Positions 4,263 through 34,676 of a DNA stretch of 64,000 nt are shown here, piece by piece. Each line of letters starts with the position of its first letter. Position 1 is the first letter of the stretch. The DNA is from Escherichia coli. GTDB lineage: Bacteria > Pseudomonadota > Gammaproteobacteria > Enterobacterales > Enterobacteriaceae. The notes beneath the pieces were generated by a model. It had not been told where the DNA came from and searched no databases. It worked only from the letters and a program-made list of their open reading frames with translations. Position numbers and translations under genes: made by a program. Where the stretch lies: the NCBI RefSeq assembly GCF_022846255.1, contig NZ_AP025682.1. One strand, 5' to 3'.

Positions 4263-5048
4263 ATGAGTGAATCATTACATCTGACCCGCAATGGATCAAT
4301 TCTGGAAATTACCCTTGATCGTCCAAAAGCGAATGCTATTGATGCAAAAACCAGCTTTGAAATGGGCGAAGTATTTCTAAATTTCCGTGACGATCCGCAA
4401 TTACGTGTCGCCATTATTACCGGTGCCGGAGAGAAATTCTTTTCCGCGGGCTGGGATTTAAAAGCGGCAGCAGAAGGCGAAGCACCGGATGCTGACTTTG
4501 GCCCGGGAGGTTTTGCGGGATTAACCGAAATTTTCAATCTCGACAAACCGGTCATCGCCGCTGTGAACGGCTATGCCTTTGGCGGCGGCTTTGAACTGGC
4601 GCTGGCGGCAGATTTTATTGTTTGTGCCGATAACGCCAGCTTCGCCCTACCGGAAGCCAAACTGGGCATCGTTCCTGACAGCGGCGGCGTGCTGCGTCTG
4701 CCGAAGATCCTGCCGCCTGCCATCGTCAATGAAATGGTGATGACCGGCAGACGAATGGGCGCAGAAGAGGCGCTGCGTTGGGGGGTAGTCAACCGCGTGG
4801 TTAGCCAGGCGGAACTGATGGATAACGCCCGCGAACTGGCGCAGCAGCTGGTTAACAGCGCTCCGCTGGCGATTGCGGCGCTGAAAGAGATCTACCGCAC
4901 CACCAGTGAAATGCCGGTAGAAGAAGCGTATCGCTATATTCGCAGCGGCGTGTTGAAACACTATCCATCGGTTCTGCATTCGGAGGATGCCATTGAAGGG
5001 CCGCTGGCGTTTGCCGAGAAGCGCGATCCAGTGTGGAAAGGACGTTAA
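4263..5048 (+). CDS. caiD: carnitinyl-CoA dehydratase CaiD (enoyl-CoA hydratase family)
   Basis: ORF 4155..5048; start placed at MSESLHL (261 aa); crotonase fold motifs. Confidence 0.9.
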
Positions 5049-5053
5049 CAACC

Positions 5054-5644
5054 GTGAGCTATTACGCCTTTGAGGGGTTAATTCCGGTTGTTCACCCGAC
5101 GGCGTTTGTCCATCCCAGTGCAGTATTGATTGGCGATGTGATTGTGGGAGCCGGTGTCTACATCGGCCCACTCGCCTCACTGCGTGGTGACTACGGGCGG
5201 TTGATCGTGCAAGCGGGAGCCAATATTCAGGATGGCTGCATTATGCATGGCTACTGCGACACTGACACCATCGTTGGGGAAAACGGTCATATCGGGCACG
5301 GAGCGATCCTGCATGGTTGTGTGATTGGTCGCGATGCACTGGTCGGGATGAACAGCGTGATTATGGATGGCGCGGTCATTGGCGAAGAGAGCATTGTTGC
5401 CGCTATGAGCTTTGTCAAAGCGGGCTTTCGCGGCGAGAAACGCCAGTTGTTGATGGGTACGCCAGCCCGCGCTGTACGCAGCGTGAGTGACGACGAGTTA
5501 CACTGGAAACGGTTGAATACCAAAGAGTATCAGGATCTTGTCGGGCGCTGTCATGCAGCGTTACATGAAACGCAGCCACTGAGGCAAATGGAGGAAAATC
5601 GCCCCCGTTTGCAGGGGACGACGGATGTGACGCCGAAACGGTGA
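5054..5644 (+). CDS. caiE: carnitine operon protein CaiE (hexapeptide-repeat transferase-like)
   Basis: ORF 5033..5644; GTG start at 5054 gives 196 aa beginning SYYAFEG. Confidence 0.85.
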
Positions 5645-5645
5645 T

Positions 5646-5745
5646 CTTTCCGGATGCGGCGTAAACGCCTTATCCGACCTGGCTGGAAAGCAACCGTAGG
5701 CCGGATAAGATGCGCCATGAACTGCATCCGGCAACCAGGCTGCGT
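5646..5745. repeat. REP-type palindromic intergenic repeat
   Basis: ccggatgcggcgtaaacgccttatccg...ggccggataagatgcgcc...gcatccggca between caiE and caiF. Confidence 0.6.
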
Positions 5746-5763
5746 GGTATCAACGAAATGACA

Positions 5764-6419: not shown

Positions 6420-9400
6420 TTATTTGATCTGCGCGTGCATTTCCTGCACCGAAATTACTTTTTCGGTCGCATCGGCATTCAGCGCCATCGCGGTGGCAAA
6501 GCCGCCGTTCAGGGTGGTGTCGTAATGCACTTTATATTGCAGCGCACTGCGACGGATCACGCGGGAGTCTTCAATCGCACGACGACCTGAGGTGGTGTTG
6601 ATGATGTAGGTATATTCGCCATTCTTAATACGGTCCTGAATGTGCGGACGGCCTTCATGCACCTTGTTCACCAGACGCGGATTGATACCCGCTTCGCCCA
6701 GCACAATCGCCGTGCCGTGAGTCGCATCCAGCTCGAAGCCCTGTTTCAGCAGTTTTGCCGCCAGGTCCACCACGCGTTCTTTATCGCCTTCGCGCACGGA
6801 AAGCAGCGCACGACCGTGTTTCTTCATGGTGGAGTTGCTGCCCAGCTGCGCTTTGGCAAACGCTTCAGCGAAGGTGCGGCCCACGCCCATTACTTCCCCG
6901 GTAGAGCGCATTTCTGGCCCTAACAGCGGGTCAACGCCCGGGAATTTATTGAACGGCAGCACCACTTCTTTCACCGAGTAGTACGGCGGGATAACTTCTT
7001 TGGTTACGCCCTGCTCAGCCAGCGATTTGCCAGCCATCACACGCGCCGCCACTTTTGCCAGCGGTACGCCGGTGGCTTTGGAGACGAACGGAACGGTACG
7101 CGCCGCACGCGGGTTAACTTCAATCAGGTAGACTTCGTTGTTTTTCACCGCAAACTGCACGTTCATCAGGCCGCGCACCTGCAATTCGAAGGCCAGTTTC
7201 TGCACCTGCTGGCGCATCACATCCTGAATTTCCTGACTTAAGGTGTAGGCTGGCAGCGAACATGCGGAGTCACCGGAGTGCACGCCCGCCTGCTCAATAT
7301 GCTCCATGATGCCGCCAATCAGCACCACTTCGCCGTCGCAGATGGCATCCACGTCAACTTCTACTGCGTCATCAAGGAAGTGGTCCAGCAACACTGGCGC
7401 ATCGTTAGATACGCTGACCGCTGTCTGGAAGTAGCGACGCAGGTCAGCTTCGTCATAGACGATTTCCATCGCCCGACCGCCGAGAACGTAAGACGGACGC
7501 ACCACCAGCGGGTAGCCAATCTCTTTCGCTTTCTCAACCGCCATTTCGATGGTGGTAACGGTGGCGTTCGCCGGTTGTTTCAGTTTCAGACGCTCAACCG
7601 CATGCTGGAAGCGTTCACGGTCTTCCGCACGGTCGATGGCATCCGGGCTGGTACCGATAACCGGTACGCCAGCAGCTTCCAGCGCGCGCGCCAGTTTCAG
7701 CGGGGTCTGACCGCCGTACTGAACGATAACGCCTTTCGGCTTCTCAATACGCACAATTTCCAGCACGTCTTCCAGCGTTACCGGTTCGAAGTAGAGGCGG
7801 TCGGAGGTGTCGTAGTCGGTGGAGACGGTTTCCGGGTTACAGTTAACCATAATGGTTTCGTAACCGTCTTCACGCAGCGCCAGCGAGGCGTGTACACAGC
7901 AGTAGTCGAATTCGATACCCTGACCGATACGGTTCGGGCCGCCGCCGAGCACCATGATTTTTTCACGGTCGGTAGACGGATTCGCTTCGCACTCTTCTTC
8001 ATAAGTGGAGTACATGTAAGCGGTGTCGGTGGCGAACTCTGCCGCACAGGTATCCACGCGCTTATAAACCGGGTGCAGGTCATACTGGTCGCGCAGCTTG
8101 CGGATTTCTGCTTCACGCACGCCCGCGAGTTTTGCCAGACGCGCATCGGCAAAGCCTTTGCGTTTCAGCTGGCGCAGGAAGTCAGCGTTCAGGCCAGTGA
8201 TACCCACTTCCGCCACTTTCTCTTCCAGACGCACCAGTTCTTCAATTTGTACCAGGAACCAGCGGTCAATATTGGTCAGGTTAAAGACGCCGTCTACAGA
8301 CAAGCCCGCACGGAAGGCATCGGCGATGTACCAGATACGCTCAGCGCCTGCATCTTTCAGTTCGCGGCGGATTTTGGTCAGGGCTTCCGGGTCGTCGAGG
8401 CTCACTTTCGGGTCGAAGCCAGTCGCGCCCACTTCGAGGCCGCGCAGGGCTTTTTGCAGAGATTCCTGCTGCGTGCGTCCAATCGCCATCACTTCGCCAA
8501 CCGATTTCATCTGGGTGGTCAGACGGTCGTTCGCACCGACGAATTTCTCGAAGTTAAAGCGAGGAATTTTGGTGACCACATAGTCGATGGACGGTTCGAA
8601 GGAGGCCGGAGTACGCCCGCCGGTGATGTCGTTCATCAGCTCGTCGAGGGTGTAACCCACCGCCAGTTTCGCCGCCACTTTGGCAATCGGGAAGCCGGTG
8701 GCTTTCGACGCCAGCGCCGAAGAACGCGACACACGCGGGTTCATTTCGATAACAATCAGGCGACCGTTCTTCGGGTTCACCGCAAACTGGACGTTAGAAC
8801 CACCGGTTTCAACGCCGATTTCACGCAGTACCGCCATCGAGGCGTTACGCATGATTTGGTATTCTTTGTCGGTCAGTGTTTGCGCTGGCGCTACAGTAAT
8901 AGAGTCACCGGTGTGGATACCCATCGCGTCGAAGTTTTCGATAGAGCAAACGATGATGCAGTTGTCGTTTTTATCACGCACCACTTCCATCTCGTACTCT
9001 TTCCAGCCGATCAGCGACTCATCAATCAGCAGCTCTTTGGTCGGGGAGAGATCCAAACCGCGGGCGCAAATTTCTTCAAATTCTTCACGGTTATAAGCGA
9101 TACCGCCACCGCTACCGCCCATGGTAAAGGATGGGCGAATAATGCACGGGAAGCCAACTTCAGCGGCAACCGCCAGCGCTTCTTCCATTGAATGAGCGAT
9201 ACCGGAACGCGCAGTTTCCAGACCGATTTTCTTCATCGCTACGTCGAAACGGCGGCGGTCTTCGGCTTTATCAATCGCATCGGCAGTGGCACCAATCATG
9301 GTGACGCCGAACTCTTCCAGCACGCCCTGACGCTCAAGCTCCAGCGCACAGTTCAGCGCCGTCTGCCCCCCCATGGTTGGCAGCACCGCGTCCGGGCGCT

Positions 9401-9658: not shown

Positions 9659-10807
9659 TTACTTAGCGGTTTTACGGTACTGCTCAATTAACGCGATAAA
9701 GTGGTCAAACAACGGCGCGGCGTCGTGTGGACCAGGGCTGGCTTCCGGGTGTCCCTGGAAGCTGAACGCCGGTTTATCGGTACGATGAATGCCCTGTAAC
9801 GTACCGTCGAACAGGGATTTATGTGTGACACGCAGGTTTGCAGGTAATGTTGCTTCATCCACCGCAAAACCGTGGTTCTGGGCGGTGATCATCACCACAT
9901 TTTTCTCAACATCTTTAACCGGATGGTTGCCGCCGTGGTGACCAAATTTCATTTTGACAGTCTTCGCACCGCTCGCCAGCGCCAGCAGCTGATGACCGAG
10001 GCAGATGCCGAATACCGGAATATCAGTTTCGAGGAATTTCTGGATAGCGGTAATGGCGTAATCGCACGGGGCCGGGTCGCCAGGACCGTTGGAGAGGAAG
10101 ATGCCGTCCGGATTCATTTTCAGCACATCTTCCGCAGAAGTTTGCGCCGGAACGATGGTCAGGCGACAGCCTCTATCCACCAGCATACGCAGGATGTTGC
10201 GCTTGGCACCGAAATCGTAGGCCACGACGTGGTACGGCAGCTCGTCTTCTTTTTTCGCTTCTGGCAGGCCGCCGGTCAGTGTCCAGCTCCCTTGTGTCCA
10301 GCTATAGGGTTCTGCGGTGGTTACTTCTTTTGCCAGATCCATGCCGTTCAGACCTGGGAACGCGCGGGCTTTTTCTAACGCCAGCGCCGCATCCGGGTTG
10401 TCACCCGCAATAATGCAGCCATTCTGAGCACCTTTCTCACGCAGTAAACGCGTCAGCTTACGGGTATCGATATCGGCAATCGCCACGATGTTATGGCGCT
10501 TCAGGTAAGAAGAGAGGTCTTCGGTATTACGGAAGTTGCTGGCAATCAGCGGCAGGTCGCGAATCACCAGACCTTGGGCATGTACCTGAGAAGATTCTTC
10601 ATCGGCGTCATTAGTGCCGACATTGCCAATATGGGGATAAGTAAGAGTAACGATTTGACGAGAATAGGAAGGATCAGTGAGGATTTCTTGATAACCGGTC
10701 ATTGAAGTATTGAAAACGACTTCCCCAACCGCCGAACCTGTTGCCCCTATGGCCCGACCGTGAAACTGGGTTCCGTCTTCCAGAACCAATAGCGCTGACT
10801 TAATCAA
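9659..10807 (-). CDS. carA: carbamoyl-phosphate synthase small subunit (glutamine amidotransferase)
   Basis: ORF 9659..10834; start placed at TTG (LIKSALLV) with GGAGGG Shine-Dalgarno upstream, giving 382 aa. Confidence 0.93.
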
Positions 10808-10814
10808 AACACCC

Positions 10815-10860
10815 TCCAGAGAATATTCACTCACTTTATTTGCATATTAATTCACAATGA
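10815..10860 (-). promoter_or_regulatory. carAB P2 promoter region with tandem ArgR operator boxes
   Basis: minus-strand sequence TGAATTAATATGCAAATAAAGTGAGTGAATATTCTC immediately upstream of carA start matches the ArgR box pattern. Confidence 0.6.
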
Positions 10861-11262
10861 TGACGTAAATCAATGCAAATCTGCTTACCGACGAATTTCT
10901 GGCAAACGGCGGCATTCTGGAGATATGGGCGCTAAAAGTCAACTTAATGGCGGGATTTTTTATATTATTTTGTGGCTCATGCATGTTTTACAGGCATTAA
11001 GCGACAAAAAGATCATATAACATGTTCTGGAAAACGCTTGCGCAGCAAGAAGATTGCATGAAATCAAAATGAGCAGAAAAAAGTGGACCAAATGGTCAAA
11101 ATTTACATTAAAACAACAAAAACAGAATGCAAAACATATAATTTTCAGCATTTGCATTAAATTTAAAAGCATAAAACCAAAAATAAAAGGGCCAAAAATT
11201 AAAGCCCTTTATATTCAATGCATTAAATGTGTTATTTTTGCATCACTATAAATATTTTGTGG

Positions 11263-12099
<837 letters not shown>

Positions 12100-26556: not shown

Positions 26557-27462
26557 TTAACGCGCCGCTGGACTAAAAAGCGCAGAATAATCCGTATTGC
26601 AGATTCGCTGTACCGCCGGGTGCTGAATCATCCGCTCAGCAAAAATAGCATGGTACTCTTCCATCACATTTTCGACGCGACCAATTTCTACGACAGTTTT
26701 ATCGGCATAAAAGTCATATGCATAAAGCGTTGGGGCAACGAAGATTGCATTGTGCATCGCACCAAAAGCTTTCATCAACGCGGCATCATCAAACTCGCCG
26801 AGGATTTCTACGTTTAATCCCTGGGAGTTAAACCAGTTAAGCAATTTGCGCCCTAACATTGAACGTCGCCCAGGAATCAAAAGCCGCCGTTCTTCCAGAC
26901 AAGCCGGGAACGGTTTTTCCGGTGGTGGATTTGTACACCAGAAACTCACGCCACATTCGCCAATTCTCACGGAGAACAGGCCTTCCTGCTGCGTAGAATC
27001 TATCGGACAGTCGGAAATGATCATATCCAGTTTATGCTGGCTTAATTGCTCCAGCAGCATTTCGTGGGTGGATTCGAAGCAGCGAAGATGAATCGGCTCG
27101 CCTTCTACCACTGCGGCGTTAAGTACGCTACTGACCAGGCGTTTAGAAAGTGCATCAGCCACGCCAACGTCAAACAATAAATTGGATTCTTTGCGATAGT
27201 TCACGATATCCAGCATTTCCTGGCTTAAGGTGAACATTTTATCGGCATAGCGATAGACCAGCTCTCCCAGCTCGCTGGGTTCGAGACCACGTCCCTTGCG
27301 CTTAAATAATTTGCCTTGCAGGCGCTCTTCCAGCGCCCGAATCTGTCCGGTAATGGTTTGTGGTGTTAAATAAAGCGCCTCCGCTGCGCCAACCACGGAA
27401 CCTTCTTTATAGACATGCCAGAAGTAATACAAGTGGTTGTAATTGATATGAGACATGCTCAT
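26557..27462 (-). CDS. nhaR: LysR-family transcriptional activator NhaR
   Basis: ORF 26557..27480; start placed at [14 protein letters not shown] (301 aa). Confidence 0.93.
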
Positions 27463-27521
27463 TTCTCTCCCTGATAACAATGAAAAGGGAGCCGTTTATG
27501 GCTCCCCGGTAAACCGTCCTG

Positions 27522-28688
27522 TCAAACTGATGGACGCAAACGAACGCGTAACCAGCTGTATCCAATTACCGCCGAAGAGATAGAACCGACCAGGATACCG
27601 AGTTTCGCCCAGTTAATCAGTTCTGGATCTACGCTACCAAAGGCAAGGCTGGCAATAAAGATAGACATAGTAAAACCGATACCGCACAGGATCCCCACCG
27701 CCATAATTTGCTGATAAGTCGTTCCCTCAGGCAGATGCGCTAGTTTCAAACGCAGCGCCAACCAGCAGAACAGACTAATCCCCAGCGGTTTGCCAATCAG
27801 CAAGCCAGCGATGATCCCCAATGGCAGAATGGAGGTCAAGCCATCCAGCGTGACGCCTTGCAGTGAAACGCCAGCATTAGCAAATGCAAACAGCGGTAAA
27901 ATCAGATACGCCACCCACGGGTGCAACACATGCTCCAGTCGCTTCGCTGGGGAACGCCCATGCTTCTCTTTCAAAGGAATAAAGAAGCCGACAATTACCC
28001 CCGCCAGGGTTGCGTGAACCCCCGATTTCAACACCGCAGTCCACAACACCACGCCAACCAGAATATAGACGCCCGTGCGGCGCACACCACACAGATTCAA
28101 TACCGCGAGTACCGCAATTGCTACAGCCGCGACGCCAAGAGAGGCCATCGATAAGTCATTGGTGTAGAACAATGCGATGATAATGATGGCCCCAAGATCG
28201 TCGATAATAGCCAGAGCCATCAAAAAGATCTTCAGCGCTAACGGAACACGACTTCCCAACAGCGCCAGCACACCAAGTGCAAAGGCAATGTCAGTAGCCG
28301 CCGGGATCGCCCACCCTTCGCGGGTAATCGGATCGGCATAGTTAAAGGCCAGATAGAGCAATGCCGGCACAATCATCCCACCAATAGCGGCGATAACTGG
28401 AAATGCGGCCTGGCGTAAGCTGGCTAGCGATCCTTGCATCAGTTCACGTTTAACTTCCAGACCGACTAACAGGAAAAATACCGCCATCAGCGCGTCATTT
28501 ATCCATAACAGCATGTTTTTGTTGATTTCGAGTGAACCAACCCGGAGCTGAACTGGCGTCTCCAGAAAGTCGTGATACCATCCACTGGTTGCGCCGCTAT
28601 TGGCCATAATCATCGCCAGGATAGCGGCAATGATAAGAATAATGCCTCCCGAGGCATCACTGCTAAAGAATCGATGCAGATGTTTCAC
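27522..28688 (-). CDS. nhaA: Na+/H+ antiporter NhaA
   Basis: 388-aa polytopic membrane ORF, recalled match to NhaA. Confidence 0.95.
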
Positions 28689-28939
28689 TTTTTATTTCTC
28701 TTTCAGGTGAATAGATCGTTTTTACTATTTTACCCCGCACGAATCATCGTTAAAATCAGATTATAGTGTAGGAATAATTCGTTTTTTACGAACCATTGAA
28801 GGATTTGTGCCATCAGCGATGAGATGAGTTTTTGACGGCTGTAAGCGCTGACGTGTGACCCTAAGCCCTGATAATCATAGCTTAAGGTGAGGATTTCTGA
28901 GGGATTAATTAGGAAAAGTAATAATAAAATCGCACTGTG

Positions 28940-30184
28940 CTATAGCTGTTTATTCCAGAGATGCTTGAAAATATCTAATGTTGAGACAACATTGGCAGGC
29001 GACATTCGGTTTAATGAGGGTAGAAAGGGATGAGCCTCCAGGAAGTTGATAAAACGAGTCGCGCTTGCTAACGTCGAATACCGCATTTCATTTGCTTTCT
29101 TGTTTCCTGTAAGGTTACAAACAGCCATTGAATAATCACGGGCGGAAAATGCACGCCAAACATTATTTCTCACGCCATCACTCAAAAACAACCGCGGCGG
29201 CGTATCATAATGAGTCGTTTTCTCGCCGCGTTCTTTCACAAATGAAATATGGCACCGGCCTTGATGAATATGCTGTAAATTAGCCATTAGACAACCGCCT
29301 AATATAAAGCACTCGTGATCAAGGTAGTGTTGAATATTTATAGAATATGCTTCAGTCAGTGCTCTAACCAGTTCAAAATGGCGATATGCCGGAAGAACCG
29401 GTTTCACCAGCATCCCCGGATCGTTTTGATGTAATATCGCCCGACCATAATCAATATCAAATAAGGTATCACGCCGCATAGTAAGTAACTCCTTGCGTTG
29501 TACGTGATGCGCCAGTGTACCTGGAGACAAACGCTCTTCATAACTTGATGCATATTGATAATGCGACTCTACCGCTGATGAAGAATAATTTGTTGAAATA
29601 GCGACGACTCTACCGCTTTGTTCTTCTGCGGTAACAAGACTATAAAGATAGTTGTTACTACCGTTAAACTTTACGCGAAAAGCGCGGGTAGCGAGAGAAA
29701 TATCAGAAGCAGAAGAGTACTGGCAACTTTCTTTATAGTTTACTTCCCGGGCTAGTTTCATCAACTCACGGTTAAGCCCTGTGCTATTAAGAAGTAATAA
29801 TTTACGGATATCTGCAAGTGAAGCGCCTTGCTCAATCATCAATGCTAAATGTGTTCTTCGCGGCGTTGTATTTACATGATCCAGAGTGATAAAAGTTCTG
29901 GAACAATGATGACAATACATTCTCCTCTGCCCCTGAGCTGAATAGCCATACTTTTTCAGAGATGTGCTTCCGCAAGCTGAACATTGTGGAACCAACCCTC
30001 TCCATGAATGATTAACACGATTACGATAAATATTAAGAGATCGTTCAGATATCACAGGAAACAAGTAACCGCATTCACGGCATAAAATATTTTTACCCTG
30101 TGCGACATAATCCTGGCTATTCAGCACCCCCAGGTTTTTACATCCTGGTGTTTTGCAACAATCAACATTTACGTTGGTAAACAT
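28940..30184 (-). CDS. Cys-rich protein with tandem zinc-ribbon motifs and putative HTH; function unknown (possible regulator)
   Basis: ORF 28940..30190; ATG at 30184 with GGGAG SD; two CxxC...CxxC pairs in first 100 aa. Confidence 0.6.
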   Translation of the reverse strand: MFTNVNVDCCKTPGCKNLGVLNSQDYVAQGKNILCRECGYLFPVISERSLNIYRNRVNHSWRGLVPQCSACGSTSLKKYGYSAQGQRRMYCHHCSRTFITLDHVNTTPRRTHLALMIEQGASLADIRKLLLLNSTGLNRELMKLAREVNYKESCQYSSASDISLATRAFRVKFNGSNNYLYSLVTAEEQSGRVVAISTNYSSSAVESHYQYASSYEERLSPGTLAHHVQRKELLTMRRDTLFDIDYGRAILHQNDPGMLVKPVLPAYRHFELVRALTEAYSINIQHYLDHECFILGGCLMANLQHIHQGRCHISFVKERGEKTTHYDTPPRLFLSDGVRNNVWRAFSARDYSMAVCNLTGNKKANEMRYSTLASATRFINFLEAHPFLPSLNRMSPANVVSTLDIFKHLWNKQL

Positions 30185-30312
30185 ATCCACTCCCTGCGAA
30201 TAGCCGTATCTTGATATTGTTCAACGCGAAAAGAACCTGATTCAATGCGTAGCACTGAATCAGGCGGGCATAGCCCTAAATGGCATACATTACATTTATT
30301 ATGATTATCAGG

Positions 30313-31806
30313 TTAGCCCCAGGTCACCGCTTCTGGTTTATCACCTCTGGCTTTCATTAGAGAATCATTATCAATATCAGTTTTATATTTTAAAAACTTA
30401 CCATACATCTGTTTTTCAATATCTGGTTTTTTACCGATCAGATTAAGTGTTTCAAAACGATCAGATTTCAGATTGTAGAGATATTTCGGTTTATTATTGC
30501 GATCGATAATCATCTTCCAGTCACCATCACGGATCGCCCATTCATCGGTTGGATCATCCTGGAATGGCATGTCAATTCCGAAGATTAATGGCTTTTCACG
30601 TTTTAGCGCCTTGTTCTCAAGGACAGGAACCAACGATTCGCCATCAAAAGTCCGGTCCGTCGGTAATTTGAAGTTCATCATTTTCGCCAGCGTAGGCATC
30701 CAGTCCAGACCATAAACAGGCGTATCTGAAACCATTCCCTTTGGAAGATGTTTACCGTATTTAATAATTGCCGGAACACGAATTCCGCCTTCCCAAAGGT
30801 TATCCTTGCGACCGCGTAATCCATCCGTTTCCCCTGCCAAATTCAGCTCATACACTTTGCGCGCTTCACGCGTTACCGGACCGTTATCACTGGTAAAAAT
30901 AACGATTGTGTTATCTTCTTCACCCATCGCTTTGATTTTATCCAGCACTTTTCCAACCTGTGCATCCAGATAGCTGATATTGGCATAATATTCCCCCACA
31001 CCACGCCAGGGTTTATCCGCCCAGTCGCCATAAAATAAATCAGGATGCTGCTTCTGATAGTCGCTCATATATTGTGAGTACATGTCGAGGTATTTTTTGG
31101 GCGAAGCCAGGGGACTGTGCACTTCGGTAAAAGCGACATAAAGGAAGAAAGGCTTACTATCCTTTTTGTTATCCAACCAGTTAACGACTTCCGAACTGAC
31201 ATACTCACCACTCATTTTATCGGCACGAGGTGTGGGTTGCCCGTTACGCAACCAACCCGTCGGATACACCATGCCAAAACGGGGACGCTCCTTCGCATTA
31301 TCCAGAGTAGCGTCGGTAACAAAACCCGCCGTATTAACCAGTGAGTAATCAAAGCCCATATCTTTTGCCTGAGGCTGATCGGTACGATCGCCGCCTGCAT
31401 TCAGATGCAGCTTACCCATCATTGCCGTGTCGTACCCTTGCGCTTTGAGTAGATTAGCAATCGTGAGTTCGTTACGCCCTAATGCCACATCTTTTCCCGT
31501 TGGGATCCATGAACGTATGCCGGTACGAAATGGCATCCGCCCCGTTAATAACCCCGCTCGCGAAGGAGAACTTAAGGGAGCTGGTGCATAGTAGTCAGTA
31601 AATTTGACGCCCTCCTGGGCAAGCCTGTCAATATTGGGGGTTTTAACGATCTGATGTCCATATGTTGCTAAATCACCATAGCCTAAATCATCCGCCATAA
31701 TGATGACTAAATTAGGTTGTTTAGTCTCGGCAGCTACGACTGGATTAAAAGCATTCCCTGTGCAAACTGCAAGGCCGATCAAACTGGCCATTAATGTTTT
31801 CTGCAT
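30313..31806 (-). CDS. periplasmic Ser-type sulfatase (arylsulfatase family)
   Basis: ORF 30313..31842; ATG at 31806 with AGGGA SD; signal peptide; sulfatase signature PLSSPSRAGLLTGR with Ser at the formylglycine position. Confidence 0.85.
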   Translation of the reverse strand: MQKTLMASLIGLAVCTGNAFNPVVAAETKQPNLVIIMADDLGYGDLATYGHQIVKTPNIDRLAQEGVKFTDYYAPAPLSSPSRAGLLTGRMPFRTGIRSWIPTGKDVALGRNELTIANLLKAQGYDTAMMGKLHLNAGGDRTDQPQAKDMGFDYSLVNTAGFVTDATLDNAKERPRFGMVYPTGWLRNGQPTPRADKMSGEYVSSEVVNWLDNKKDSKPFFLYVAFTEVHSPLASPKKYLDMYSQYMSDYQKQHPDLFYGDWADKPWRGVGEYYANISYLDAQVGKVLDKIKAMGEEDNTIVIFTSDNGPVTREARKVYELNLAGETDGLRGRKDNLWEGGIRVPAIIKYGKHLPKGMVSDTPVYGLDWMPTLAKMMNFKLPTDRTFDGESLVPVLENKALKREKPLIFGIDMPFQDDPTDEWAIRDGDWKMIIDRNNKPKYLYNLKSDRFETLNLIGKKPDIEKQMYGKFLKYKTDIDNDSLMKARGDKPEAVTWG

Positions 31807-31825
31807 AATTATTCCCTGATGAAAA

Positions 31826-32587
31826 TTAGAAATCATAACCAAGCATATAAATCATTTGATCGCCAAAACCATCGTAGCCCAACTTATTATCGAAATAACG
31901 CCACGTCACACTGGCTTTCCAGCGAGGATAAAACTTCCAGGCCACTGTTAAACCGCCATTTAGCCCATTCCTACCAAATTGTTGTTCCGCATAGGCATCA
32001 TTTCTGTCCAGTTCTATTTCATTCCAGTTAGATAAAACAAATTTTTCGTCAAATAACGTAAAAGGTAATACTGCTGTCCAGCCAACAACATAACCATTCC
32101 AACCATTCGTTTGACCATATTTAGCTGAGACGTAGTCACCAGATTGATTATGTAATCCAATATACGGTTTAAAAAAGCCCCACTCGCCGTTCCAGCCGAG
32201 GTAACCGAATCCATAAAACATATCAAGATCGTCACCCCATGAGTTATCCCATTGGCCATAAATTTTGCCAAAGAATGTCATATCAGAGTCAAAGAGTCTG
32301 ACATGCGTCATTGCTGAAACCGTATGATTTCTCCCTGCTACAGCATGATTGAGTACATTACTTTCATAAAATGAGTAAAATTCTGCTTCTTTAAAATTTA
32401 CCCCAAAATCCGCAGTCACTTTCCATACTTCACCACGGTGAGTGTTTACAAATCCACTATTCCAGTCTGCATAACCCGCATTTATTGAACCAAAGGTTCC
32501 TTTATATTCTAATGAAGAATATGCAGGAAAATGATAGATAGCTGTTATCAGGGTACACGCAATAAGAAGTCGTCTTTTGGCAGACAT
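31826..32587 (-). CDS. small outer-membrane beta-barrel channel (KdgM/NanC- or Tsx-like)
   Basis: 253-aa ORF with signal peptide, aromatic-rich alternating pattern, C-terminal ...GYDF. Confidence 0.6.
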   Translation of the reverse strand: MSAKRRLLIACTLITAIYHFPAYSSLEYKGTFGSINAGYADWNSGFVNTHRGEVWKVTADFGVNFKEAEFYSFYESNVLNHAVAGRNHTVSAMTHVRLFDSDMTFFGKIYGQWDNSWGDDLDMFYGFGYLGWNGEWGFFKPYIGLHNQSGDYVSAKYGQTNGWNGYVVGWTAVLPFTLFDEKFVLSNWNEIELDRNDAYAEQQFGRNGLNGGLTVAWKFYPRWKASVTWRYFDNKLGYDGFGDQMIYMLGYDF

Positions 32588-33098
32588 ATAATATGTTCTC
32601 CATTCATTGTTTTTATGATTCCATAGGAATTAATACACCAGACAATTCATTTTTATTAAGAATGACCAGGCCAGTATATTTAAAGATGACTATCGAAGCG
32701 TGATGAAGATCGCAGATTACTTTTGCGAACGGGCGGAGAGATATCGTGTTTCAGAAAATGTGTCTGTTTTAAATATCACCCTTTGATTTATAGGCATTTT
32801 TCATGATGAACTTAGCATTGACTGCTGAACGTATTTCTTTGTCTCTCTATAGTATTACACTAACCTTTAATAATTAATTTCCTTTAGCTATTCACTTTTG
32901 ATAGAGGAAAACACCTTTTTTTGTGAATCCATGGATATTTTTAAGTTAAATAAATTGATGTATTGAAATATTATTCCGTAAAAATGCGAGGCGTCTTCAG
33001 AAAAAGAATTGATAAAACAGAAGTGAATTAAAAGCGCTGTATAATAGCGGCGGGTGCTTGAGGCTATCTGTCTCAGGCATTAGCTGAACGGCAGATAG

Positions 33099-33153
33099 AG
33101 AAAAGCCCCGAGTGATATTTTACCATCAACCCGAGGCCCCCTATATGCTGAAC
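33099..33153 (-). ncRNA. sokC: sokC antisense RNA of the hokC/mokC type I toxin-antitoxin locus
   Basis: placed by recalled K-12 spacing relative to the mokC start; not verified by structure. Confidence 0.4.
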
Positions 33154-33354
33154 ACATGTAGAGTGCCTCTTACTGACCGTAAGGTCAAGGAGAAGAGAGC
33201 AATGAAGCAGCATAAGGCGATGATTGTCGCCCTGATCGTCATCTGTATCACCGCCGTAGTGGCGGCGCTGGTAACGAGAAAAGACCTCTGTGAGGTTCAC
33301 ATCCGAACTGGCCAGACGGAGGTTGCTGTTTTCACGGCTTACGAATCCGAGTAA
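33145..33354 (+). CDS. mokC: MokC, translational regulator overlapping hokC
   Basis: 69-aa frame MLNTCRVPL... fully containing hokC. Confidence 0.6.
   Translation: MLNTCRVPLTDRKVKEKRAMKQHKAMIVALIVICITAVVAALVTRKDLCEVHIRTGQTEVAVFTAYESE
33202..33354 (+). CDS. hokC: type I toxin HokC (Gef), small membrane toxin
   Basis: 50-aa ORF MKQHKAMIVALIVICITAVVAALVTRKDLCEVHIRTGQTEVAVFTAYESE. Confidence 0.8.
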   Translation: MKQHKAMIVALIVICITAVVAALVTRKDLCEVHIRTGQTEVAVFTAYESE

Positions 33355-33428
33355 GAGCAACGGCGGGGAGTGATCCCCGCCACTTTACAGGTGCTCGCAT
33401 ATCTTCAACGCACCCTGTTTTTTACCTG

Positions 33429-33450
33429 GCCTGCCCACGGGCAGGCTTTT
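33429..33450 (+). terminator. hairpin plus T run downstream of hokC (convergent with dnaJ)
   Basis: gcctgcccacgggcaggc followed by TTTT. Confidence 0.5.
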
Positions 33451-33457
33451 GGGGAGG

Positions 33458-34588
33458 TTAGCGAGTCAGGTCGTCGAAAAACTTCTTCACACCATCAAAG
33501 AAGCTCTTTGAGCGCGGGCTGTTGTGCTCGCCGGTTGGGCCACCGAAGCTTTCTTGCAGCTCTTGCAGCAGCTGTTTCTGCTTCTCGTTCAGGCCTACCG
33601 GTGTTTCGACGACAACGCGGCACAGCAAATCACCCTGTGCGCCACCGCGGACAGACTTGACGCCTTTACCGCGCATACGGAACAGCTTACCGGTCTGGGT
33701 TTCGCCAGGCACTTTCAGTTTGACGCGACCATCAAGAGTCGGTACTTCGATTTCGCCACCCAGCGCCGCCATAGCGAAGTTGATCGGGACTTCGCAATAG
33801 AGGTTGTTGCCTTCACGCTCGAAAATCGGGTGCTGTTTAACCTGAACCTGAACGTACAGATCGCCTGCCGGTGCGCCATGCTCGCCCGCTTCACCTTCGC
33901 CCGCAAGACGGATGCGGTCTCCAGTGTCCACTCCTGCCGGGATTTTAACGGACAGCGTTTTGCTGCGCTCAACACGACCATGACCATGACATTTGTTGCA
34001 CGGATCTTTGATCAGCGTACCGCGGCCCTGACAGTGTGGACAGGTCTGCTGTACAGCGAAGAAGCCCTGACGCATCTGCACCTGACCAGAACCATGACAG
34101 GTCGGACAGGTCTGCGGCTGTGTACCTGGTTTTGCACCGCTACCGTGGCAAACGTCACACTCTTCCAGAGTCGGAATGCGGATCTCTTTGGTCACGCCAC
34201 GTACAGCTTCTTCGAGGGTGAGCTCCATGTTATAGCGTAAATCAGCACCGCGCGCCGCACGTTGACGACCACGTCCGCCGCCAAAAATATCGCCGAAAAC
34301 GTCACCAAAAATATCGCTGAAGTCTGCGCCGCCGCCAAAACCGCCGCCGCCCATGCCGCCTTGCTCAAACGCAGCATGACCATACTGATCGTATGCCGCA
34401 CGTTTTTGCGAGTCGGTCAGAACTTCATAAGCTTCCTTGATCTCTTTAAATTTCGCCTCGGCCTCTTTGTCACCCTGGTTACGGTCCGGGTGGTATTTCA
34501 TGGCCAGGCGTTTGTAGGCCTTTTTGATTTCACGCTCTTCCGCTGTTTTGGAAACGCCTAAAATCTCGTAATAATCTTGCTTAGCCAT
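33458..34588 (-). CDS. dnaJ: chaperone DnaJ (Hsp40)
   Basis: ORF 33458..34618; start placed at [13 protein letters not shown] domain, G/F region, four CxxCxGxG zinc repeats. Confidence 0.95.
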
Positions 34589-34676
34589 CTTTTTTGATTT
34601 GCCCCTAGATGAATGCACGGGCGGAGAGGAAATTCCCCTTCGCCCGTGTCAGTATAATTACCCGTTTATAGGGCGA

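Follow-up and report, generated by a model that had tools for sequence, protein, structure and literature searches.

An AT-rich stretch between hokC and a porin-sulfatase operon of Escherichia coli as a putative composite control region with a predicted CRP-activated, H-NS-silenced porin promoter

A 511-bp stretch (positions 32588-33098) between the toxin gene hokC and a porin-sulfatase operon was analyzed in a 64,000-nucleotide segment of Escherichia coli DNA (assembly GCF_022846255.1, contig NZ_AP025682.1), the whole of which is referred to here as the window. The genes around it are arranged in the order dnaK, dnaJ (minus strand), hokC (opposite strand), three module genes, nhaA and nhaR. 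The first gene of the operon (31826-32587, minus strand) encodes an outer-membrane porin of the Tsx/OmpK family with 253 amino acids (Pfam Channel_Tsx, E 4.6e-13); this match is weak and confined to residues 106-253, and in RefSeq relatives the porin carries the label 'outer membrane protein OmpK'. The second gene (30313-31842, minus strand; Pfam Sulfatase, E 2e-59) encodes a periplasmic sulfatase with the Ser-type active site SSPSR, and its start as annotated in relatives lies at ~31806, 20 bp beyond the porin stop. The last module gene (28940-30190, minus strand) encodes a 416-amino acid protein with Zn-ribbon, helix-turn-helix and RNase H-like parts, which is possibly transposase-derived and a candidate regulator. 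It carries an IS1/IS1595-type zinc-binding domain, and sequence searches against PDB and Pfam gave marginal Zn-finger/Zn-ribbon matches only.

The stretch is limited on the left by the A of the porin ATG (32587, minus strand; open reading frame 31826-32587) and on the right by a position ~2 nt from the 3' end of sokC, as mapped via alignment from K-12 (sokC 16952-17010). Its G+C content is 0.335, compared to a window mean of 0.495 (standard deviation 0.066), and a G+C content this low was found in just 3.1% of all 511-bp windows within the 64 kb. No open reading frame of at least 15 amino acids with both start and stop kept across three diverged Escherichia haplotypes could be identified, no RefSeq feature lies inside the stretch in the 25 genomes listed, and at E<=1 only the hok/sok family of Rfam was matched. 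The description of this DNA as AT-rich and non-coding in a previous sequence-only reading was therefore correct, including its coordinates, and a small gene that this reading might have missed was looked for without a conserved reading frame or an additional Rfam RNA being found. Terminator-like sites were detected at two positions, both outside 32588-33098, and no tandem repeats were found in the stretch. The only other equally AT-rich troughs in the window are 10763-11345 and 19663-22087, the latter of which coincides with a fimbrial-type gene cluster adjoining nhaR.

To describe conservation along the stretch, three-way identity was calculated in 20-bp blocks between the window/CFT073 type, strain 200112 and E. 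albertii. The leader and promoter region of the porin (32588-32808) showed 60-85% identity. It is followed by an AT-rich hypervariable spacer (~32809-32981, assigned to neither strand) in which identity dropped to 10-55% per block and no constraint could be detected; between genera the spacer cannot be aligned. Beyond the spacer, a block upstream of the hokC promoter (32982-33021) was conserved at 80-90%, a variable stretch entering the hokC -10 element (33022-33041) at 40%, and the remainder of this element together with the hokC start (33042-33060) at 90%. The stretch thus comprises ~215 bp of conserved porin control DNA, ~170 bp of spacer and ~117 bp that belong to hokC, and the middle ~170 bp appear to be AT-rich DNA that is free to vary. 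The predicted starts of porin and hokC are ~386 bp apart, which is long, yet not extraordinary for a divergent pair. The partition indicates a composite, back-to-back control region of two divergent units and not a single long promoter. The length of the region had previously been taken as a sign of a complex promoter, which does not hold, as only ~215 bp (32588-~32808) are conserved porin control DNA.

The porin promoter was compared by MAFFT and by an alignment anchored on a palindrome, using 13 loci from Escherichia and six other genera. By blastn no nucleotide similarity was found between the upstream regions of Escherichia and the other genera, and shared blocks became visible in the anchored comparison only. 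Three shared elements, the palindrome, a TAnnnT hexamer and an upstream box, stand in otherwise unalignable DNA. In the window, the hexamer is the -10-like TATACT (32673-32678, minus strand), which does not vary among four Escherichia sequences from three diverged haplotypes. No match to a -35 element was found 17 bp upstream of it, where ACGCTT is present. The palindrome TGCGATCTTCATCACG (minus-strand reading; 32699-32714, assigned to neither strand) resembles a CRP site and is centered at ~-40.5 from the predicted start. In 13/13 orthologous loci the hexamer begins 21-22 nt past the right half-site of the palindrome, and this spacing is preserved in Citrobacter despite unrelated intervening sequence. 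The upstream box ACATTTTCTGAAACAC (32746-32761, minus strand) covers ~-80 to -95 (~-88) and is a putative factor site. It has the consensus ACAYTTT(T)CTGA(C/A)CAC and is conserved in all genera, ~47 bp upstream of the palindrome center; in Buttiauxella and 'Enterobacter' pulveris (E. pulveris) it is located about one helical turn closer. Three-way identity remains at 60-80% over 32750-32808, so that the block conserved in Escherichia reaches ~32808. The box is present as a single copy in the window. A strict sigma-70 scan of the stretch gave no promoter-like site, which would fit activator dependence and is otherwise uninformative. With a lone -10-like hexamer that is not accompanied by a -35 element, the earlier expectation that this is not a simple constitutive promoter was supported.

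From the position of the -10-like hexamer, a porin 5' untranslated region of ~79 nt is predicted (32588-32666, minus strand), with a Shine-Dalgarno sequence GGAG at 32598-32601 and a three-way Escherichia identity of 70-85%. The fold of this leader did not differ from that of shuffled sequences (z-score 0.09), indicating no special structure. A direct repeat AAAA(C)AATGAAT (minus-strand reading) was observed in the predicted leader at 32602-32618 and 32645-32661. It is kept within Escherichia and not in the other genera, and could be a target for a small RNA or for translational control.

The sequence of the palindrome varies between genera in a limited way. In Escherichia it reads TGCGATCT(T/C)CATCACG, with invariant half-sites and variation in the adjacent 10-14 bp. 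In five loci (Kosakonia, three Phytobacter species and UBA3516) it is TGTGATATCTCTATCACA, an exact TGTGA-N8-TCACA, and in the two Citrobacter loci it is TGTGAGATTTACATCACT, with the right half-site TCACT. The exact CRP consensus TGTGA-N6-TCACA was found in Buttiauxella (TGTGATTTTTATCACA) and E. pulveris (TGTGATTATTATCACA), the porins of which are just 63-65% identical to that of the window. The window site itself agrees with the CRP half-sites at 8/10 positions (TGCGA/TCACG). The distance from the palindrome center to the hexamer is 28 bp in Escherichia and 29 bp in all other genera, which places the center at -40.5/-41.5 if the hexamer is the -10 element. This geometry is that expected of a class II CRP-dependent promoter, and the comparison between genera suggests that cyclic AMP (cAMP)-CRP probably binds the palindrome and activates transcription. 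CRP sites with an 8-bp spacer form a recognized class (Barber 1993, cited in PMC10187061). Other assignments were considered. FNR, ArcA, PhoB and IHF were rejected by inspection for both the palindrome and the -88 box, because spacing or half-sites did not fit the consensuses. A second CRP-like copy at 32804-32817 (a repeat) was rejected as well, since it is not conserved in other haplotypes.

On the other side of the spacer, the hokC promoter region (32982-33051, plus strand) consists of the conserved block 32982-33021 and a perfect -10 element TATAAT (33040-33045) that ends 7 nt ahead of the Rfam-defined 5' end. This region is also present in K-12 and in strains that do not carry the module. 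The hokC mRNA leader with the mokC/translational-control region (33052-33204, plus strand) was matched by Rfam RF01794 'sok' over model positions 1-157/157 with 120.5 bits (gathering score 59, E 2.6e-28), and its first 47 nt (33052-33098) lie inside the stretch. Since these 47 nt and ~70 bp of hokC promoter are included, the stretch overlaps the hokC control region: the sequence-only reading had rightly seen that the two are adjacent, but ~117 bp belong to hokC and do not merely abut it. The antisense RNA sokC was mapped from the K-12 annotation to ~33096-33154 (minus strand). The intact 50-amino acid hokC frame (33203-33355, plus strand) is contained in an 80-amino acid open reading frame in the mokC frame (33112-33354), and RefSeq relatives have a 153-nt hokC gene at the matching position with WP_000809168.1 as the single product. 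HokC could be detected only in Escherichia among the orthologous loci compared. A block AAAAATGCGAGGCGTCTTCAG at 32982-33001, which precedes the hokC start by ~52-72 bp, was observed in all hokC haplotypes including the K-12 type, and its flanks vary while the block stays. Compared with the hokC/mokC/sokC type I toxin-antitoxin system of K-12, the window has a full-length Rfam match of the leader, an intact HokC of 50 amino acids and 93.7% identity over 32934-33377. It differs downstream of hokC: the segment between hokC and dnaJ (33356-33457) does not contain IS186/IS421, which is present there in K-12, 2017-02-2CC, ETEC4073 and 200112, and for this reason the hokC locus looks intact in the window.

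The G+C content decreases from 0.495 for the window to 0.417 for the module and 0.335 for the region studied, as is typical of H-NS-silenced DNA. In strain CFT073 the genes are arranged in the same way, and identity to the window amounts to 97-100% over 32000-34600 and to ~97-99% (about 98%) in the region studied. Per-gene values from chromatin immunoprecipitation sequencing of this strain in glucose-rich defined medium are available (Hustmyer et al. 2022, PMC9765446, Data set S1A). The ratio of immunoprecipitated to input DNA (IP/input) for H-NS was 36.71 for the porin gene c0021, 15.31 for the sulfatase gene c0022 and 15.61 for c0023, with RNA polymerase values of 0.44, 0.47 and 0.88, respectively; all three are classified as H-NS bound with weak RNA polymerase (class III). 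The neighboring genes dnaJ (H-NS IP/input 0.62, RNA polymerase 4.03), mokC (3.55 and 6.74) and nhaA (1.53 and 2.51) are classified as unbound (PMC9765446). As the porin gene is bound and mokC is not, a boundary of the H-NS domain falls inside the stretch. The proposal of an H-NS-type silenced region was thereby upheld for H-NS occupancy with weak RNA polymerase on the three orthologous module genes, per gene and in another strain, and not for direct silencing of the promoter. H-NS may repress initiation at the porin promoter. A literature search for c0021 and c0022 by locus tag gave nothing in main texts. A TCGATAG sequence between palindrome and -10 element was considered as evidence for H-NS and rejected, as it is not conserved.

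In K-12, similarity to the window ends at 28928 and resumes at 32934, and the 4-kb module between these positions is absent. The porin gene was found in 1273 of 5426 complete E. coli genomes (~77% do not have it), with an identity to the window porin of 95-99% in 931 and 90-95% in 341 of the 1273 genomes. At megablast sensitivity, the whole 511 bp were found in 928 genomes only, which points to a second, diverged upstream haplotype. A 'putative cerebroside sulfatase' module has already been drawn as variably present beside nhaAR (Lescat et al. 2014, PMC4182557). In K-12-type strains ~125 bp of unrelated AT-rich DNA replaces ~28926-32979 (locus L003, 3172-3300; K-12 17171-17299). This junction DNA showed no detectable similarity to either module end, and a search for a relic of the porin promoter in it gave nothing significant. 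In the flank beside the junction, identity between strains with and without the module is only ~85%, which, together with the unrelated filler, suggests that the module-less strains represent an old, linked deletion haplotype.

The ancestry of the module was surveyed by scanning species-representative genomes for the porin, the sulfatase, where present a maturase, and the Zn-ribbon protein. In Kosakonia, four Phytobacter species, the metagenome-assembled genome UBA3516 and E. albertii, the module was located between dnaJ and nhaA. In two Citrobacter loci, E. whittamii and a cryptic Escherichia clade it was found on partial contigs with one flank visible, a Kluyvera contig carries the module alone, and neither dnaJ nor nhaA was seen in the fetched stretch of Buttiauxella and 'Enterobacter' pulveris. 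Because the same dnaJ-nhaA slot is occupied in other genera, the module is ancestral and has been lost in ~77% of E. coli; it is not a recently acquired island. Recent horizontal ('xenogeneic') origin is a usual, but not a defining, trait of H-NS-silenced loci, and the module does not show it. In every genus examined (four other genera and E. albertii), the G+C content of the module is 5-11 points below that of the dnaJ and nhaA flanks. Relative to CFT073 the window is a deep mosaic (noted for 26600-30000): identity is 87-94% in parts of sulfatase and porin, falls to 73-83% in the last gene of the module, and is 80-95% in nhaA/nhaR. The locus is therefore a recombination mosaic, which fits the divergence of nhaAR between B2 strains and non-B2 ones reported in PMC4182557.

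Taken together, the stretch is probably a composite divergent region that combines the promoter and leader of hokC with a neutral spacer and a porin-sulfatase promoter activated by cAMP-CRP and silenced by H-NS. On the hokC side, the right ~117 bp would provide the promoter and the first 47 nt of a leader with the translational-control structure targeted by sokC. On the porin side, RNA polymerase would use TATACT and start at ~32666; as there is no -35 element, initiation would depend on cAMP-CRP at TGCGATCTTCATCACG in a class II arrangement. A second factor may bind the conserved box at ~-88. An H-NS filament that begins within the intergenic region would coat the whole AT-rich module, so that the operon would be off by default, both in glucose, where cAMP-CRP is lacking, and through H-NS, and expression would need catabolite de-repression plus counter-silencing or an inducing signal.

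Several observations weigh against this model. Within the window, 19 matches to TGTGA-N6-TCACA with at most two mismatches were found and 25.6 are expected, so that such sites are not rarer than chance; the Escherichia site alone is not significant, and the argument for CRP rests on conservation and position. The spacer is 6 bp in Escherichia and 8 bp in most relatives, which means that the left half-site is shifted by 2 bp, a change that could reflect decay. The H-NS values are gene-level values from another strain, and the table gives no separate value for the intergenic region (CFT073 16339-16951). They were also obtained in glucose medium, where missing cAMP-CRP alone would predict low RNA polymerase. 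The high-affinity H-NS motif TCGATAAATT was matched once in the stretch with at most two mismatches, without local enrichment. All Escherichia sulfatases have the active site PLSSPSR, and every other genus has PLCSPSR. In Kosakonia a 401-amino acid radical-SAM, anSME-like maturase is encoded between the sulfatase and the last gene (7389-8594 of locus L005), and a gap of ~1.3 kb at this position suggests a maturase in six other loci; in Escherichia, on the Kluyvera contig and in P. massiliensis there is too little space for such a gene. Moreover, the porin of the E. albertii type strain NBRC 107761 is frameshifted into open reading frames of 190 and 118 amino acids (5001-5761 of locus L013). 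With the maturase lost, the Cys changed to Ser and this frameshift, the module may be in the process of disappearing.

These signs of loss lead to the alternative that Escherichia is losing the module and that its promoter there is a decaying relic, conserved through shared ancestry only. The absence of the porin gene from 77% of complete E. coli genomes and a CRP-like site that is two mismatches off that of the other genera would agree with this as well. Against it, strong purifying selection acts on porin and sulfatase: compared with CFT073, the ratio of nonsynonymous to synonymous substitutions (dN/dS) is 0.026 at dS 0.16 for the porin and 0.034 at dS 0.35 for the sulfatase. In addition, the palindrome half-sites, the -10 element, the box and the untranslated region are kept while their neighbors and the 170-bp spacer diverge, a signature of selection and not of recency. 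Such block-wise conservation argues that the porin promoter is still functional in Escherichia, and a mere relic is regarded as quite improbable. Somewhat less improbable, though still unlikely, is that the region is generic H-NS-coated AT-rich DNA of a cryptic operon, with no activator logic of its own, and that the palindrome is bound by another regulator, either the Zn-ribbon/helix-turn-helix protein of the module or another member of the CRP/FNR family. The strong H-NS signal in CFT073 would be expected in this case, a protein that looks DNA-binding is always encoded in the module, and the TGTGAT-N6-ATCACA of most genera is 2 bp longer than a canonical CRP site. However, CRP sites with 8-bp spacers are documented, and the two most divergent loci have an exact 16-bp CRP consensus at -41.5. 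Half-sites of the TGTGA/TCACA type are also kept in every genus while the module protein is only 41-62% identical, whereas an operator co-evolving with it would be expected to drift. It is very improbable that a gene for a small protein, or an independent small RNA, is hidden here. Several open reading frames of 15-36 amino acids exist, and the ~79-nt leader with its direct repeat is more conserved than the promoter spacers, but no frame has both its ends conserved among the three Escherichia haplotypes, Rfam and the terminator search pointed to nothing in the stretch beyond hok/sok, the leader fold is indistinguishable from shuffles and RefSeq relatives are unannotated there.

Within the favored model of a CRP-activated porin promoter, the -88 box may be assigned a partner, although the following idea is speculative and has a small chance of being right. 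The box would be the operator of the module's own 416-amino acid protein, a vertically inherited transposase-derived factor that would act with CRP as a substrate-specific activator or as an H-NS counter-silencer, in a module that has been rewired in Escherichia through the Cys-to-Ser change, maturase loss and the 2-bp shift of the CRP site.

In class II CRP promoters such as galP1 and melR, the CRP site is centered at -41.5 and overlaps the -35 position. The porin promoter resembles them in its TGTGA/TCACA-type palindrome 28-29 bp upstream of a -10-like hexamer, in the lack of a -35 element and in driving a catabolic or scavenging function. It differs in the TGCGA/TCACG of the window site, the 8-bp spacer of most relatives and the extra box at ~-88. 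The bgl operon of E. coli is a cryptic catabolic operon with a CRP-dependent promoter that is silenced by H-NS via AT-rich flanking DNA. The porin operon would share with bgl an AT-rich control region, H-NS occupancy with little RNA polymerase (in CFT073), a predicted dependence on CRP and the off state under laboratory conditions. Here, however, a porin and a periplasmic sulfatase are encoded and not a phosphotransferase system, and the H-NS data are gene-level; activation by insertion of an IS element or by BglJ/LeuO is a feature of bgl without evidence here. Promoter P2 of tsx is the CRP-activated promoter of the founding Tsx porin. In both cases a Tsx-family porin gene lies behind a CRP-type site, but no tandem arrangement of the CytR type could be recognized at the window promoter. 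Conceptually, the same pairing of a global silencer and CRP at AT-rich promoters is described in a study on toxin promoters of enterotoxigenic E. coli that are co-regulated by H-NS and CRP (Haycocks et al. 2015, PMC4287617), and the promoter classes and genes given there are different.

In place of an anonymous AT-rich gap, the analysis provides a promoter model that can be tested and that includes a predicted start, a CRP site and an additional operator. About a quarter of E. coli, among them the B2 uropathogen CFT073, carry the operon that it would control. While the biology is otherwise conventional, the strong H-NS coating lies here on a locus that is ancestral and inherited vertically, and not on a recent island.
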